A stretch of DNA of 64,000 nt from a virus (taxonomy: Duplodnaviria; Heunggongvirae; Uroviricota; Caudoviricetes): IMG/VR virus record IMGVR_UViG_3300031760_000004, positions 28,294-92,293 of that record; one strand, given 5' to 3'. The notes beneath the pieces were generated by a model. It searched no databases and was not told the DNA's origin. It saw only the letters and a program-made list of their open reading frames with translations. The position numbers and the translations under genes are program-made. Each line of letters begins with the position of its first letter. The first letter of the stretch is position 1. Shown piece after piece: positions 25,492 through 57,049 of this stretch.

Positions 25492-26073
25492 ATGGAATAC
25501 AAGTACGGATCGGCCTCGTGCTACCAGCTGGACAAGAAGTTCGACGACCTGTTCGACACCTACGACTGCGACGGGATGTGGGCCACGAAAAAGACGTACC
25601 GGCATTCGGAACCCGGGATGTCGTTCAAGTACAAGTACTCGCTTGAGGCCGTTGAGTTCGAGGAGGGCAAGGTGATGACCTACGTCAAGCTGGTCATGCT
25701 CCCTGAATCGTTTTGCAAGGCCAAGCGGGCCAAGCTCGCCGACGGATACGGCATCGAGGAGAAGGACCTGACCGTGGCCGACATACTCGCTAACGAGCTG
25801 GCCGGCGTGGTGATGATGGAATCCCAGCTGTTCGAGTACGACACCTATGACGAGGAGGACTGGATCGGCTGCGCCAGGTTCAGGACGCTGCAGGACACCG
25901 TGGCGAACATACTCGACATGCTCGACGGGATGCGCGGGTTCTTCATCGACCGGCCGCAGAACATGATCGGCACGACGGGATGGGACCTCATAAAGGAGGC
26001 CAAGGGCAGGGTCAAGGACGCTATACGGGCGTCTGTCAGAAGACTGAAGAATGAACATAAGGAGGATAAGTAA
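25492..26073 (+). CDS. Hypothetical protein
   Basis: 193 aa. Ribosome-binding site GGAGGAAAACATG. Confidence 0.5.
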   Translation: MEYKYGSASCYQLDKKFDDLFDTYDCDGMWATKKTYRHSEPGMSFKYKYSLEAVEFEEGKVMTYVKLVMLPESFCKAKRAKLADGYGIEEKDLTVADILANELAGVVMMESQLFEYDTYDEEDWIGCARFRTLQDTVANILDMLDGMRGFFIDRPQNMIGTTGWDLIKEAKGRVKDAIRASVRRLKNEHKEDK

Positions 26074-27194
26074 TGGTCTTTTACTACGGTGGCAAATTCA
26101 ATCCCTGGACAAAGGGGCACATGAGCGTCCTGAAGGACCTGTGCCACTACATCCAGGACAACTACAAGCTCATCGAGGAGAAGTACGGAAAACCCAAGAT
26201 CATAATCGGGGTCAAGTCCGGCGCGCTTGATGGCAGCGACATGGCATGCGGACGCGGAATCAAGACGTCCGTTATGAACCGTAAGGACATGGTGCGCGAG
26301 GCCATCAACGGGCTTCAGAAGGAGTTCCCGTTCCTAGTCGAGTTTGAAAGCTACACCTCGAACGACAAGATCGACGTTGTGGAGCAGACGATCGACAGGA
26401 CCTGGGAATACTTCAACAGCAAGCCCATGTGGTGGCCTGACAACGGCAAGGTCACCATCGTCATGGGCGAGGACGAGCACCGCGATTTGATTCTCTCGTC
26501 CGAGGGCTCGAGCGACCGGTGGATGCACGCCAGGGAGATCCTTGACAAATGGCCCGTGATGGCATTCCCCAGGGACCCGTTCGTGTCCAGCACACGCGTC
26601 CGCGAGATATTCCGCGCCGACCCGTTCGTGCAGTGGCAGTCCGTGTCAGACTACCTGGAGAAGCCCGTATACGACTACATCGTCGACAACATGCTCTACT
26701 GGCAGTACCCGGAGGAGGAAGCCCGGCGCGAGGAGACCGTGTTTCTCCACAACTACGACATGTCGAAGTTCCCGAGGCCGTCGTGCACCGCCACGGTGGC
26801 CGTGACGTGCTGCGGGAAGATTCTCCTGGTGAGGCGCAAGGGCCACCCGTTCCGGGACTACTGGGCCATGCCCGGAGGGTTCTTCGACGTGGACAAGGAC
26901 GAGAGCCTTGTGTACACTGCACAGCGGGAGCTCTCGGAGGAGACCGGACTTGACTGTCCCCCGGGTATGTTCAAGCTTTTCGACGTGTTCAGCGAGAAAT
27001 GGATCGATCCTAGGGGGCGCATCGTGGACACGGTGTTCCATGTCGACCTGGGCGACAAGTTCCGGGAGGTCAAGGCCGGCGACGACGCGGCCGAGCTGAT
27101 GTGGTGGCCTATCGATGGGCTTCCCAAGATGGCGTTCCACCATCGCAAGGTGGTGGAGTTTCTGGCAAGCCGCATGGCTATGGACAAGGAGTAG
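26073..27194 (+). CDS. nadM: Bifunctional NadM-type nicotinamide/nicotinate-mononucleotide adenylyltransferase fused to a Nudix hydrolase (ADP-ribose pyrophosphatase-like)
   Basis: N-terminus YYGGKFNPWTKGHMSVLKDL matches the (H/T)xGH nucleotidyltransferase motif of NadM-type NMNAT. C-terminus GGFFDVDKDESLVYTAQRELSEETGLD matches the Nudix box Gx5Ex7REUxEExGU. Confidence 0.7.
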   Translation: MVFYYGGKFNPWTKGHMSVLKDLCHYIQDNYKLIEEKYGKPKIIIGVKSGALDGSDMACGRGIKTSVMNRKDMVREAINGLQKEFPFLVEFESYTSNDKIDVVEQTIDRTWEYFNSKPMWWPDNGKVTIVMGEDEHRDLILSSEGSSDRWMHAREILDKWPVMAFPRDPFVSSTRVREIFRADPFVQWQSVSDYLEKPVYDYIVDNMLYWQYPEEEARREETVFLHNYDMSKFPRPSCTATVAVTCCGKILLVRRKGHPFRDYWAMPGGFFDVDKDESLVYTAQRELSEETGLDCPPGMFKLFDVFSEKWIDPRGRIVDTVFHVDLGDKFREVKAGDDAAELMWWPIDGLPKMAFHHRKVVEFLASRMAMDKE

Positions 27195-27199
27195 TGAAA

Positions 27200-27736
27200 A
27201 TGGCAGTTGAAAACGAGCGCACGGTCGAACTCTCGGAAATCGAGGTTTCTCCAGACGAGATCAGGAAGTACATGGCCGAAAACGGAGTGAAGTCCGTGAC
27301 GGCCAAGCGGGTGATGGAAATCGTCAACCGCTTCGGGGTCGACGCATTCGCGAGCGGGAACAACGCGGCCTGGAACGAGATGTTCCACAAGGTCCGCCCC
27401 GGCACGTCGGTCGACCTGGCCGGAAAGAGCGTGAAGACGTTCTGGAAAGTGGCGACGTGGATCAAGGATCAGCGTTTCCAGAATAAGACCAGAATCCTCG
27501 AGAAGCAAAAAGAGGACGAGAAGGCGGCCAAGGACGCCGAGAAGGCGGAAAAGGCCAAAAAGGACCACGAGCGACTGCTCAACCCCGAGTTCACGGTGGA
27601 CGAGCTAGAGTCGATAGTCACCTTGATGAGGGACTGCCATTTCGACGCGGTCGACCTCAGGGGCGCCCGGGGGTTCCTCGACACGTTCAAGGTGTTCCCA
27701 AAGCCAGGCGCACCGGCTGAGAAGGACGGGAAGTGA
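27200..27736 (+). CDS. Hypothetical protein with a K/E-rich central region
   Basis: Internal Met (ribosome-binding site AGGAGTAGTGAAAATG) of ORF 27101..27736. Confidence 0.5.
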   Translation: MAVENERTVELSEIEVSPDEIRKYMAENGVKSVTAKRVMEIVNRFGVDAFASGNNAAWNEMFHKVRPGTSVDLAGKSVKTFWKVATWIKDQRFQNKTRILEKQKEDEKAAKDAEKAEKAKKDHERLLNPEFTVDELESIVTLMRDCHFDAVDLRGARGFLDTFKVFPKPGAPAEKDGK

Positions 27737-55205: not shown

Positions 55206-55216
55206 AATTCAGACCG

Positions 55217-56434
55217 ATGATCAACTCGCTTCTCGAGAACGACCTGTACAAGTTCTCGCAGGGGCAGATGATATACCACCAGTTCCCGGAGTACAGGACC
55301 AAATGGGAGTTCCGCTGCCGGAACAAGGACGTGGTGTTCACCGGTGCCATGATACAGGAGATCAACGAGCAGATAGACCATTACTGCAACCTCAGGTTCA
55401 CCGAGGACGAGCTGGACTATCTGAAGTCGATCCGCTGGATAAAGCCAGCATATGTCGACTTTTTGAGACTCTGGCATCCTCGCCGAGAGGACATCATGGT
55501 CGGGGTGAGCCTTGACGACGGTGGTCCTGAAGACGAATGCGGAATGCGCATCTGGGCGGAGGGGTCGTGGCTCAACACGTCACCTCTTGAGGTGCCGATC
55601 CTGGCCATTGTGAACGAAGTGTACTACAGGGAAAAGTGCCGGGATATATATCCGGAACTGGAGGCCTCGTTCATGTATCGGCTGAAAGACAAGGCGGAGT
55701 GGCTTAAGACGCACAACATCGGCTCCTTCTCCGAGTTCGGCCTACGCCGCCGGTTCAGCGGCGAGATGCAGGACAGGGCGGTGGCGCTGCTCAAGAAGTA
55801 CTCCCCGACGTGGCCTGACAGCCACTTCGTGGGCACGTCCAACGTGTACCTCGCGAAAAAGCACTGTCTGACCCCTGTCGGAACCATGGCGCATGAATCG
55901 TTGCAGTGCGTCGGGCAAGGCGACCCGTCGAAGAACCCCGCGTACTCCAACCGGTTCATGATGGAGGCGTGGGTCCGCGAGTTCGGCGTGGACAACGGCA
56001 TCATGCTCACGGACTGCCTGTCGACCGACCTGTTCCTGCTGGACTTCGACCGAAAGTACGCGACGCTGTTCAGCGGCGTTCGCCACGATTCTGGAGACCC
56101 GTTCGAATGGGCCAAGAAGATCCTGAAGCACTACGAGATGCTCGGGATCAATCCGCACACGAAGACCCTGCTGTTCTCGGACAGCCTCAACTTCCAACGT
56201 GCGGAGGCCATCTACTCCAAGTTCAGCGACATCGCGAAGGTGGCGTTCGGCATCGGCACGTACCTGGCCAACGACACGTGTGCCGAGCCACTCAACATCG
56301 TCATGAAGGTGACCCAGTGCAACGGGCGCCCTGTGGCGAAACTGAGCGACACCCCGGGAAAGGGAATCTGCACGAACGCGGAGTACATCGACTATTTGAA
56401 GCGTACAATGGACTGGCGCTTCAACCACCAGTAG
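55217..56434 (+). CDS. pncB: Nicotinate phosphoribosyltransferase (PncB family)
   Basis: N-terminal LLENDLYKFSQGQMIY...EFRCR matches the PncB LLDTDxYKLxM...FR motif. ~405 aa. Alternative GTG start at 55202. Confidence 0.7.
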   Translation: MINSLLENDLYKFSQGQMIYHQFPEYRTKWEFRCRNKDVVFTGAMIQEINEQIDHYCNLRFTEDELDYLKSIRWIKPAYVDFLRLWHPRREDIMVGVSLDDGGPEDECGMRIWAEGSWLNTSPLEVPILAIVNEVYYREKCRDIYPELEASFMYRLKDKAEWLKTHNIGSFSEFGLRRRFSGEMQDRAVALLKKYSPTWPDSHFVGTSNVYLAKKHCLTPVGTMAHESLQCVGQGDPSKNPAYSNRFMMEAWVREFGVDNGIMLTDCLSTDLFLLDFDRKYATLFSGVRHDSGDPFEWAKKILKHYEMLGINPHTKTLLFSDSLNFQRAEAIYSKFSDIAKVAFGIGTYLANDTCAEPLNIVMKVTQCNGRPVAKLSDTPGKGICTNAEYIDYLKRTMDWRFNHQ

Positions 56435-56470
56435 TGGTACAACTACAGCCCATCCAACAGGAGAAGAAAC

Positions 56471-57049
56471 ATGAGTGACAAGACAAAGAAGGTGCTGGTA
56501 GTCGTCGACATGCAGAACGACTTCCTCGAAGGACCCCTCGGAACAGACCACACGCGTGCGTCAATCCCGAACGTCGTGAACCTGATCAAGGGCTGCGCGT
56601 GGGACACGGTGATCCTTACACTGGACACGCACGGCGAGGACTACCTGAAGACACTAGAAGGCGAAAAGCTCCCGGTCGTCCACTGCGTCAACAAATCAGC
56701 GGGGCACAAGGTTTGCCATGAGGTCCGGGACGCAATCCACAGCATGGAGAACGAGATCCCGGATACATTCCAGTGGACCCCAATCATGAAGCGAACGTTC
56801 GGGTCCACAGACCTGATGGCTGAGCTGAGCAGAATTTCTGACTCGGTATCGGGACGCGACATGGAGATTCATTTCTGCGGCGTCTGCACGAGCATCTGCG
56901 TGCTGGCGAACGCCGTGCTGACGCGTGCGTTCACGCCTGACGCCAAGATCGTGATTCACTCGAAGGCATGCGGAGACGTCGACGAGCACACGCACAACCA
57001 CGCTCTGGAGTGTCTTAAGATGCAGCAGTGCGAAGTCGTAGAGGACTAG
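56471..57049 (+). CDS. pncA: Nicotinamidase / isochorismatase-family hydrolase (PncA-like)
   Basis: VLVVVDMQNDF catalytic Asp motif. Cys in FCGVCTSICV. Sits immediately downstream of pncB. Confidence 0.65.
   Translation: MSDKTKKVLVVVDMQNDFLEGPLGTDHTRASIPNVVNLIKGCAWDTVILTLDTHGEDYLKTLEGEKLPVVHCVNKSAGHKVCHEVRDAIHSMENEIPDTFQWTPIMKRTFGSTDLMAELSRISDSVSGRDMEIHFCGVCTSICVLANAVLTRAFTPDAKIVIHSKACGDVDEHTHNHALECLKMQQCEVVED

Follow-up and report, generated by a model that had tools for sequence, protein, structure and literature searches.

Can a tailed phage rebuild NAD+ from nicotinamide by the deamidated route, through nicotinate, and if so, what would it gain? The question is raised by a 64,000-nucleotide stretch of an uncultivated virus (IMG/VR record IMGVR_UViG_3300031760_000004, positions 28,294 to 92,293), here called the window, with coordinates counted from its first letter. 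An original prediction made from the letters alone had located four NAD-metabolism genes on it, coding for a nicotinamidase (PncA), a nicotinate phosphoribosyltransferase (PncB), an adenylyltransferase fused to a Nudix domain (NadM-Nudix) and an NAD+ synthetase (NadE). All four open reading frames (ORFs) were recovered on the plus strand, with ends that deviate by no more than 15 nt from the coordinates claimed, and their third-position G+C content (GC3, 0.78-0.86) is of the coding type. On balance we favour the view that the phage carries a complete route from nicotinamide via nicotinate, nicotinate mononucleotide (NaMN) and nicotinate adenine dinucleotide (NaAD) to NAD+, the likeliest purpose of which is to keep NAD+ available during infection. 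Each of the enzymatic activities, the order of the third and fourth steps and the benefit against host defence are what we infer from these genes.

The assignment of PncB (55202..56434, plus strand; type I) is unambiguous on sequence grounds. The profile search that had been proposed as a check on this gene gave scores above the cut-offs of both TIGR01514 (399.2 against 269.55 bits) and NF003704 (453.4 against 379 bits), the NAPRTase N-terminal (PF17767) and catalytic (PF04095) domains are both present, and the protein aligns end to end with PncB2 of Pseudomonas aeruginosa (PDB 1yir, E = 2.4e-85). The alignment includes the histidine of the GTMAHE motif (H226), which is invariant and is the residue that is phosphorylated in this family. 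Furthermore, Lachnospiraceae, other Clostridia and Treponema have chromosomally encoded PncB proteins to which that of the phage is 58-63% identical. Translation could begin at GTG 55202 (410 aa) or at ATG 55217 (405 aa); GTG 55202 is preceded by GGAGG and is the start used in the ENA gene call (410 aa), and judged by the sequence it is the more likely one. The enzyme is predicted to convert nicotinate and host-made phosphoribosyl pyrophosphate (PRPP), coupled to ATP, into NaMN. The family claimed for NadE (32844..33701, plus strand; 285 aa) is likewise borne out: the protein scores 161 bits against TIGR00552 (cut-off 63.65) and 163 bits against PF02540, contains the SGGKDS-type PP-loop (GISGGKDS) and matches phrog_11189, 'NAD synthetase', at 8e-43, while its ATG at 32844 follows an AGGAG ribosome-binding site. 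It consists of a single PF02540 domain and lacks a glutaminase (nitrilase) domain, which argues for an ammonia-dependent enzyme. Its best PDB relatives are all NH3-dependent (2e18 of Pyrococcus horikoshii, 1.4e-33; 1xng; 3p52; 3fiu of Francisella tularensis, E = 7e-25), and it is closest to the short enzymes of P. horikoshii, Helicobacter pylori, Campylobacter jejuni and F. tularensis. In Methanocaldococcus jannaschii, a single-domain NadE of the archaeal type that works together with NadM is a NaAD-specific NAD synthetase (PMC3376133). The phage enzyme is predicted to turn NaAD, ammonia and ATP into NAD+, the alternative being the conversion of NaMN into nicotinamide mononucleotide (NMN).

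The PncA-type protein (56471..57049, plus strand; 192 aa) matches the Pfam Isochorismatase domain (PF00857) with 65.8 bits, against a cut-off of 27. When a profile of 41 homologues was compared with the PDB, solved nicotinamidases ranked at the top, with 5zn8 of Bacillus subtilis first (9e-22), followed by yeast Pnc1 and the enzymes of P. horikoshii, Streptococcus mutans, Streptococcus pneumoniae and Mycobacterium tuberculosis (2h0r, 1im5, 3s2s, 3o90 and 3pl1, respectively). Among the 13 best profile matches at least nine chains were deposited as nicotinamidase/pyrazinamidase, all of them above carbamoylsarcosine amidase and isochorismatase. The catalytic triad D13-K107-C143 aligns with that of the B. 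subtilis and P. horikoshii PncA; within the 41 homologues K107 and C143 are invariant, as are the metal ligands D52, H54 and H71, and at least 90% of the homologues retain D13. A D-x-H ... H metal site separates nicotinamidases from other isochorismatase-like hydrolases. In addition, PncA adjoins PncB in the window and in two related contigs (L003 and L009; L numbers denote the loci fetched for comparison), and the PncA-like family adjoins pncB in bacterial salvage operons. On the basis of profile ranking, conserved residues and gene linkage, nicotinamidase appears to be the best call, so that the PncA-like identity first proposed stands in its ranking and in its triad and metal site, though not by a match to a curated equivalog. 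The predicted reaction is the conversion of nicotinamide into nicotinate and NH3. A PncA-like gene was also seen without PncB, NadE or a nicotinamide mononucleotide adenylyltransferase (NMNAT) within 10 kb, in L010 (10001-10576) and L011 (10001-10579). In L010, a close relative of the window, it lies between SbcC and a helicase, the position taken by NadE in the window, and in the jumbo-phage-like L011 it lies beside Hsp70, NusG and ClpP. The partner genes may be encoded at other places in these genomes; otherwise PncA would act there on its own.

The fourth protein (26073..27194, plus strand; 373 aa) combines an adenylyltransferase domain (residues ~1-215; 26073..26717, plus strand) with a Nudix domain (residues ~229-362; 26757..27158, plus strand) in the NadM-Nudix, or NatV-like, architecture, and Pfam recognizes the two as CTP_transf_like (26 bits) and NUDIX (61 bits). 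An AlphaFold2 (AF2) model built on 33 homologues reached a predicted local distance difference test (pLDDT) score of 90.3, and the top six Foldseek matches of the fusion were, over both domains, the NadM-Nudix structures 2qjt, 2qjo and 2r5w of Francisella and Synechocystis (E = 7e-20 to 7e-18, ~390-405 aligned columns), to which its identity is only 18-20%. Full-length phage homologues are annotated as bifunctional NMNAT/Nudix proteins. The name NadM-Nudix is upheld in so far as the two-domain architecture is concerned (Pfam, AF2, Foldseek), and fails at the curated equivalog: NF003786, the best of these, gave 72.7 bits against a cut-off of 397 and covered residues 146-353 only. Because this cut-off is missed, the protein as modelled is NadM-Nudix-like in architecture and not a member of the family. 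At the nucleotide-binding motifs HxGH and ISSTxxR the transferase has GGKFNPWTKGH, in which the first His is replaced by Thr (T13-K-G-H16), and SSTRVR (S172-S-T-R-V-R177), with H16 and R177 invariant; a Thr at this place is also found in PPAT-type transferases. As a single domain, the transferase has its best fold match in the NaMN adenylyltransferase 5llt, and its predicted step is NaMN to NaAD. The Nudix domain belongs to the ADP-ribose-binding NrtR/ADPRase clade and is closest to ADP-ribose-bound NrtR (3gz8). Its Nudix box (REx2EE) is intact (R285-E286...E289-E290), with R285 at least 90% conserved, the three glutamates invariant and a spacing of G-x7-E versus G-x5-E. We infer a specificity for ADP-ribose, which would most likely be split into AMP and ribose-5-phosphate; through the host Prs the latter would return a product of NAD+-cleaving enzymes (NADases) towards PRPP.

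Do these four genes belong together? In the window they are found at three places, at 26 kb, 33 kb and 55-57 kb. Elsewhere they are much closer: in L002, pncB (9992-11209), the transferase-Nudix gene (11206-12336), nadE (12333-13124) and pncA (13121-13687) are consecutive, and every junction overlaps by 4 nt. The order is PncB, a 72-aa ORF, PncA, an 84-aa ORF, transferase-Nudix and NadE in L003, and PncB, transferase-Nudix, three small ORFs, NadE and PncA in L005. Overall, the four genes span 3-5 kb both in the related contigs L002, L003 and L005 and in the unrelated L048, L051 and L091, often with overlapping stop and start codons. L003, L005, L009 and L010 are relatives of the window, as they share the terminase, SbcC, helicase, Band-7, methyltransferase and many small ORFs at 50-94% identity, and it follows that the NAD genes were shuffled within one lineage. 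The clusters of L048, L051 and L091, by contrast, are compact (3.1-3.2 kb) and come from compositionally unrelated IMG/VR phages; in L053 and L055 all four genes lie within 7 kb, and the G+C content of these five ranges from 22 to 46%. Gene calls in the fetched loci were made by ORF and hidden Markov model (HMM) scans with small seed alignments, so that locus counts are approximate; queries with single proteins (PncA against IMG/VR, PncB against bacterial genomes) gave nothing, and alignment-based queries were used instead. Given that homologues of the four proteins are rare (14, 7, 45 and 177 of 50,697 phage records) and that the genes are adjacent in related contigs, the probability that they co-occur by chance is negligible. 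Since the genes lie within 3-5 kb and often overlap in both related and unrelated phages, they appear from their sequences and arrangement to form one functional module, which moves as a cassette among large phages. A cultured example is the Sinorhizobium jumbo phage Phosso (PV764938.1, ~268.7-274.4 kb; L176 4584-10225), which within 5.6 kb encodes NadE, PncB, a MutT/Nudix protein, an NMNAT and a PncA-like 'hydrolase' (HMM E = 1.4e-15; motifs VVIDTQYDF, FDTHH, IHCV and GVAADFCV). The pathway is the same as in the window phage, with Nudix and NMNAT as separate genes. In Atu_ph07, PncB, NadE and an ADP-ribose pyrophosphatase are dispersed, and NadR/PnuC is present as well.

Among cellular organisms, it is gut and rumen bacteria that have the PncB sequences nearest to that of the phage. 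In their genomes pncB is most commonly arranged behind pncA; nadE often comes next, and a 250-aa protein of a Nudix and a winged helix-turn-helix domain, NrtR, often precedes the pair. An example is the nrtR-pncA-pncB-nadE operon of Lachnospiraceae bacterium KH1P17 (L155 4538-7939; also L139, L142, L146, L147 and L170), the PncA and NadE of which are 39% and 44% identical to those of the phage; over the proteins of such operons, the identity to their phage counterparts ranges from 39 to 60%. Going by the sequences, the module was probably captured from such NrtR-regulated pncA-pncB-nadE operons of gut or rumen bacteria (Bacillota).

The PncA and NadE families have a second set of neighbours. 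PncA has at least 500 relatives in IMG/VR, and of the 80 loci that we examined (L013-L092), 61 carry within 3.6-6.8 kb, and mostly in uncultivated phages of low G+C content, genes in the order PncA, a Prs/Adps-like protein, a Namat-like protein (NAMPT_N plus NAPRTase), often a Macro domain protein, and NadE. Examples of genes like those of NAD+ reconstitution pathway 1 (NARP1) flanked by PncA and NadE are L038 (9989-14185), L054 (9998-15476), L066 (6183-10567) and L175 (5998-10436). The last of these is Phage Phass-1 (OQ749652.1, 96.8-101.3 kb), in which the cluster is annotated as nicotinamidase, Prs, Nampt and two hypothetical proteins, the final one being NadE; another NARP1-like cluster is that of IMGVR_UViG_3300045988_132849. 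The Prs-like protein is a member of the 'ribose-phosphate pyrophosphokinase' family of phages, with matches in Staphylococcus myoviruses, Felixounavirus, Pseudomonas phage K8 and Vibrio phage ICP1, a family that was redefined as Adps by Osterman et al. From the linkage of PncA and NadE to NARP1-like genes we derive the hypothesis of a deamidated NARP1 branch, in which the Namat-like enzyme would join nicotinate and ADP-ribose pyrophosphate (ADPR-PP) into NaAD, to be converted by NadE into NAD+. The NARP1 preprint and the Namat structure paper mention neither nicotinate, NadE, PncA nor macrodomains, and neither the combination of genes nor such a branch was described in the literature that we searched. 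Tentatively, PncA and NadE may then be seen as a general 'deamidated branch', which plugs either into a core of PncB and adenylyltransferase or into NARP1 chemistry. If true, phages commonly route salvage through nicotinate, for instance where host nicotinamidases outpace amidated salvage in taking nicotinamide.

What, then, would the window phage use its module for? The presence of a deamidase (PncA) together with an amidating enzyme (NadE) makes sense only around a phosphoribosyltransferase (PRTase) that is specific for nicotinate. The starting compound of the pathway, nicotinamide, and the presumed ADP-ribose-type substrate of the Nudix domain are the two products of TIR, SIR2 and SEFIR NADases, and the route would offset the cleavage of NAD+ by immune effectors of these types. 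By analogy to NARP2 (Nampt plus NMNAT-Nudix), which overcomes Thoeris and DSR2 and raises NAD+ (bioRxiv 10.1101/2024.02.11.579819), a role against defence is plausible. Several points weigh against the favoured explanation as a whole. The PncA-like protein has no match to any NCBIfam nicotinamidase model, and as its sole, weak NCBIfam match is to biuret amidohydrolase (16.8 against 370 bits), we regard its family as divergent. The transferase domain is highly divergent too, with TxGH instead of HxGH, the 26 bits in Pfam and scores far under the cut-offs of all NadM-Nudix and NadD equivalogs. The NAD genes of the window phage are split over three places, and co-expression is therefore not guaranteed. 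Moreover, the deamidated route costs more ATP than Nampt does and depends on PRPP and ammonia from the host, and the remaining 106 kb of the contig may encode Nampt, Prs or NadR. Our searches for other NAD genes covered the window and 10 kb on either side, and within this range no Nampt, Adps/Prs-like, PnuC or NadR gene was found; the 59 small ORFs of the window contain no further NAD-related Pfam domains. Pfam matches to 'Serglycin' at the GS linkers between concatenated small ORFs were spurious and were ignored.

The most serious rival keeps the same enzymes and changes their purpose: the module might be general auxiliary metabolism, providing NAD+ for the needs of a large phage itself (redox, NAD-dependent enzymes, long cycles), whatever the immunity of the host. 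Salvage of the NARP2 type, as in phage KVP40, raises NAD+ also in cells without a defence system (bioRxiv 10.1101/2024.02.11.579819), and hence the benefit need not be one against defence. In jumbo phages, NAD pathways have been interpreted chiefly as a means of metabolic independence and as a complement to pathways of the host (Li et al. 2024, PMC11662467), and the jumbo phage PA5oct up-regulates the pncA-pncB1-nadE operon of its host in ordinary infection (PMC7318152). The module itself looks as if a housekeeping salvage operon had been copied directly from a bacterium. What speaks for the preferred reading over this one is that the route begins at nicotinamide and comes with an ADP-ribose-type Nudix domain, matching both NADase products, and that NARP1-like genes, the sole demonstrated role of which is counter-defence, occur in tight linkage with the PncA and NadE families. 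We regard a purely metabolic purpose as possible rather than probable, with the remark that the two purposes are not mutually exclusive.

A further alternative concerns the order of the last two steps. As in Francisella, NadE could be an NMN synthetase that converts NaMN into NMN, after which the NadM-like domain would make NAD+ from NMN. Enzymes of the NadM family use NMN efficiently, and F. tularensis pairs its NadM with a NadE homologue adapted as NMN synthetase (PMC3376133); this homologue (3fiu, E = 7e-25) is among the closer solved relatives of the phage NadE, and the overall architecture of the fusion fits Francisella NadM-Nudix. The still closer relatives of NadE, however, those of P. 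horikoshii (2e18, 1.4e-33), H. pylori and C. jejuni, carry the annotation NAD synthetase, the single-domain NadE of archaea is devoid of NMN synthetase activity (PMC3376133), and the identity of 44% is to the NadE of a bacterial nrtR-pncA-pncB-nadE operon. In addition, the transferase domain resembles NadD, the NaMN adenylyltransferase (NaMNAT), at least as much as NadM, and in the NARP1-like clusters this NadE family occupies a place at which no substrate other than a dinucleotide (NaAD) is to be expected. The Francisella order consequently seems unlikely to us, and the order via NaAD is preferred. The claim of a full Preiss-Handler route holds in that every step is encoded, judging by sequence, structure and linkage; the last two steps would pass through NaAD or, less likely, through NMN, both of which have a precedent (PMC3376133).

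Two other readings fare worse. In the first, the module would mainly clear NADase products, PncA removing nicotinamide and the Nudix domain removing ADP-ribose or immune signals derived from it, an activity that the original prediction had also put forward as possible for the Nudix half. This would leave the strict linkage with PncB and NadE, enzymes of synthesis only, unexplained, and this clade of Nudix domains is not known to cleave cyclic ADP-ribose signals; we consider it improbable. In the second, 'PncB' would be a Namat-type ADPR-PP transferase of a NARP1-like system that is mis-named, as in the annotation of Rheinheimera phage Barba19A, older phage annotations of prs and pncB being the Prs-like and PRTase pair later defined as NARP1 (PMC6715854). 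Both PncB cut-offs are passed widely, the protein is ~60% identical to chromosomal bacterial PncB and has NAPRTase_N, not NAMPT_N, no Prs/Adps-like gene is present in the window or the 10 kb on either side to serve as the Adps partner, and PncA, NadE and the adenylyltransferase would be superfluous for NARP1; a Namat identity is so improbable that it was rejected.

The window comes from an uncultivated tailed phage of large size, at least 190 kb. A look-up of exact proteins traced it to a metagenome contig of 190,763 bp (ENA ERZ27256908 k141_4137673), on which window position w corresponds to position 162250 - w. As assembled, this contig is below the 200-kb threshold for jumbo phages, although it may be incomplete. 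The G+C content of the window is ~60%, and from ~5.5 kb onwards nearly all genes are on the plus strand. The large terminase subunit (22602..24521, minus strand) matches phrog_675 (2.4e-46) and, weakly, PF05876, and its homologues in L005 and L010, which are 53-60% identical, adjoin NAD genes. Two tail proteins (10469-14149; phrog_11262) were recognized, and the upstream flank carries a tail-fibre gene and a LysM protein. Replication and recombination are represented by an SbcC/Rad50-like ATPase and an SbcD-like phosphoesterase (an SbcCD pair), a superfamily 2 helicase, a DnaB-like helicase, a primase, a UvsX-like recombinase and a family-A DNA polymerase (PolA). Considering the terminase, tail, tail-fibre and replication genes, and a layout that is dense in ORFans and of a single orientation, a bacterial origin of the contig was rejected. 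Megablast of both NAD gene regions against the 50,697 phage records gave no match, which indicates that there is no close cultured relative, and the DNA polymerase of the window is at most 25% identical to any in these deposited genomes. The polymerase (41408-44278) has an N-terminal domain of the uracil-DNA-glycosylase superfamily (PF03167, 1.3e-9) before its 3'-5' exonuclease and polymerase domains, and its best matches are the polymerases of SPO1-like Bacillus phages, at only ~24% identity. No tRNA was found in the window.

Some of the neighbouring genes deserve mention. Three conserved neighbours lie upstream of PncB: a 270-aa ORF (54393-55205), an S-adenosylmethionine (SAM) methyltransferase (53229-54143) and a HAD-like ORF (52619-53251). 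The latter two hold their position in L003, L005 and L009; since they are kept in these close relatives and are absent near the distant L002 cluster, they probably reflect synteny of the lineage, and were rejected as members of the pathway. Just upstream of NadE is an SPFH/Band-7 protein (31515-32585; PF01145, 2.9e-29; phrog_200), of which L003 (88% identical) and L007 have homologues in the vicinity of their NAD genes. Further away, an LpxR-like outer-membrane lipid A deacylase (15346-16365; PF09982, 1.4e-49), which is kept in the related L010, hints at a Gram-negative host, and is followed by a caspase-like C14 peptidase (16431-17180; PF00656, 3.9e-11). Finally, a C5 cytosine DNA methyltransferase (61460-62701; PF00145, 8e-23) and a protein of 856 aa that carries a family-2 glycosyltransferase domain (1216-3786) may relate to the modification of DNA or of the surface.

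How does the route compare with what is known? Depletion of NAD+ is one of the commonest results when bacteria defend themselves against phages, and for three phage pathways the rebuilding of NAD+ has been demonstrated by experiment. The nearest is NARP2 (Nampt/NadV and the NMNAT-Nudix protein NatV; Vibrio phage KVP40; Osterman et al. 2024), which like the window phage salvages from nicotinamide and PRPP, and the NatV of which has the same architecture as the fusion described here. NARP2, however, converts nicotinamide into NMN directly by Nampt and needs two genes, whereas in the window phage PncA and PncB replace Nampt and an amidation by NadE is added, giving four genes, a deamidated intermediate and a higher cost in ATP. 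NARP2 is defined by Nampt (PF18127 and PF04095) with NMNAT, and in the window and its 10-kb flanks there is an NMNAT-Nudix-like protein and no Nampt. NARP1 (Adps and Namat) and NARP3 (PnuC and NadR) presumably serve the same goal of rebuilding NAD+, but their chemistry and substrates differ from those of the present route; none of the ORFs of the window matches Pribosyl_synth or Pribosyltran, and PnuC or NadR-like Pfam matches are absent from it.

Two further comparisons concern the enzymes themselves. In the pncB-nadD-nadE clusters of jumbo phages (Kuafu_71; Li et al. 2024, PMC11662467), phage-encoded PncB, NadE and an adenylyltransferase are likewise clustered, and a conversion of nicotinate into NAD+ was predicted. 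These clusters, from gut 'NAD-jumbo phages', were described as starting from nicotinate and using NadD, and are known from annotation alone; the route of the window phage begins a step before that, at a conserved nicotinamidase, and its adenylyltransferase is fused to a Nudix domain. A phage pncA is mentioned in passing in the same article, and for jumbo phages only amidated salvage was discussed by Iyer et al. 2021. In the literature that we searched, a deamidated route initiated by PncA was neither proposed nor tested as a phage counter-defence. Among bacteria, the NAD networks of Francisella tularensis and Acinetobacter (Sorci et al. 2009, 2010; Huang et al. 2008) combine a NadM-type transferase with a single-domain NadE, and 2qjt, 2r5w and 2qjo are the only solved structures that match both domains of the phage fusion, be it with low sequence similarity. 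The bacterial NrtR-regulated operons, including pncA-pncB1-nadE of P. aeruginosa, share with the phage module its three enzyme families and the kind of operon, and the phage Nudix domain is of the NrtR clade. The bacterial Nudix protein is a DNA-binding regulator (250 aa), whereas that of the phage keeps its catalytic glutamates and is fused to the adenylyltransferase. The phage module looks like a captured Preiss-Handler operon in which a catalytic Nudix domain has been joined to the adenylyltransferase.

These comparisons bear on the novelty that the original prediction attributed to the gene set as a 'distinct third solution', a description that has been overtaken. The publication of NARP3 dates from 2026 (PMC13464706), and the pncB-nadD-nadE clusters and a phage pncA were reported in 2024 (PMC11662467). 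As NARP1, NARP2 and NARP3 are already established, the route would be a fourth solution to NAD+ reconstitution rather than a third; the finding is real, coherent and testable, and not a new category. Should the route work, the complete nicotinate (Preiss-Handler) pathway, with its nicotinamidase, would also have been taken over by phages, and the catalogue of counter-defence would gain a cassette of four genes that is mobile among large phages and descends from salvage operons of an ordinary bacterial kind. The occurrence of PncA and NadE on either side of NARP1-like genes in many gut phages points, beyond that, to a chemistry undescribed in the literature searched. With the same gene set as the window phage, Sinorhizobium phage Phosso and its host are a cultured pair that makes the route directly testable.

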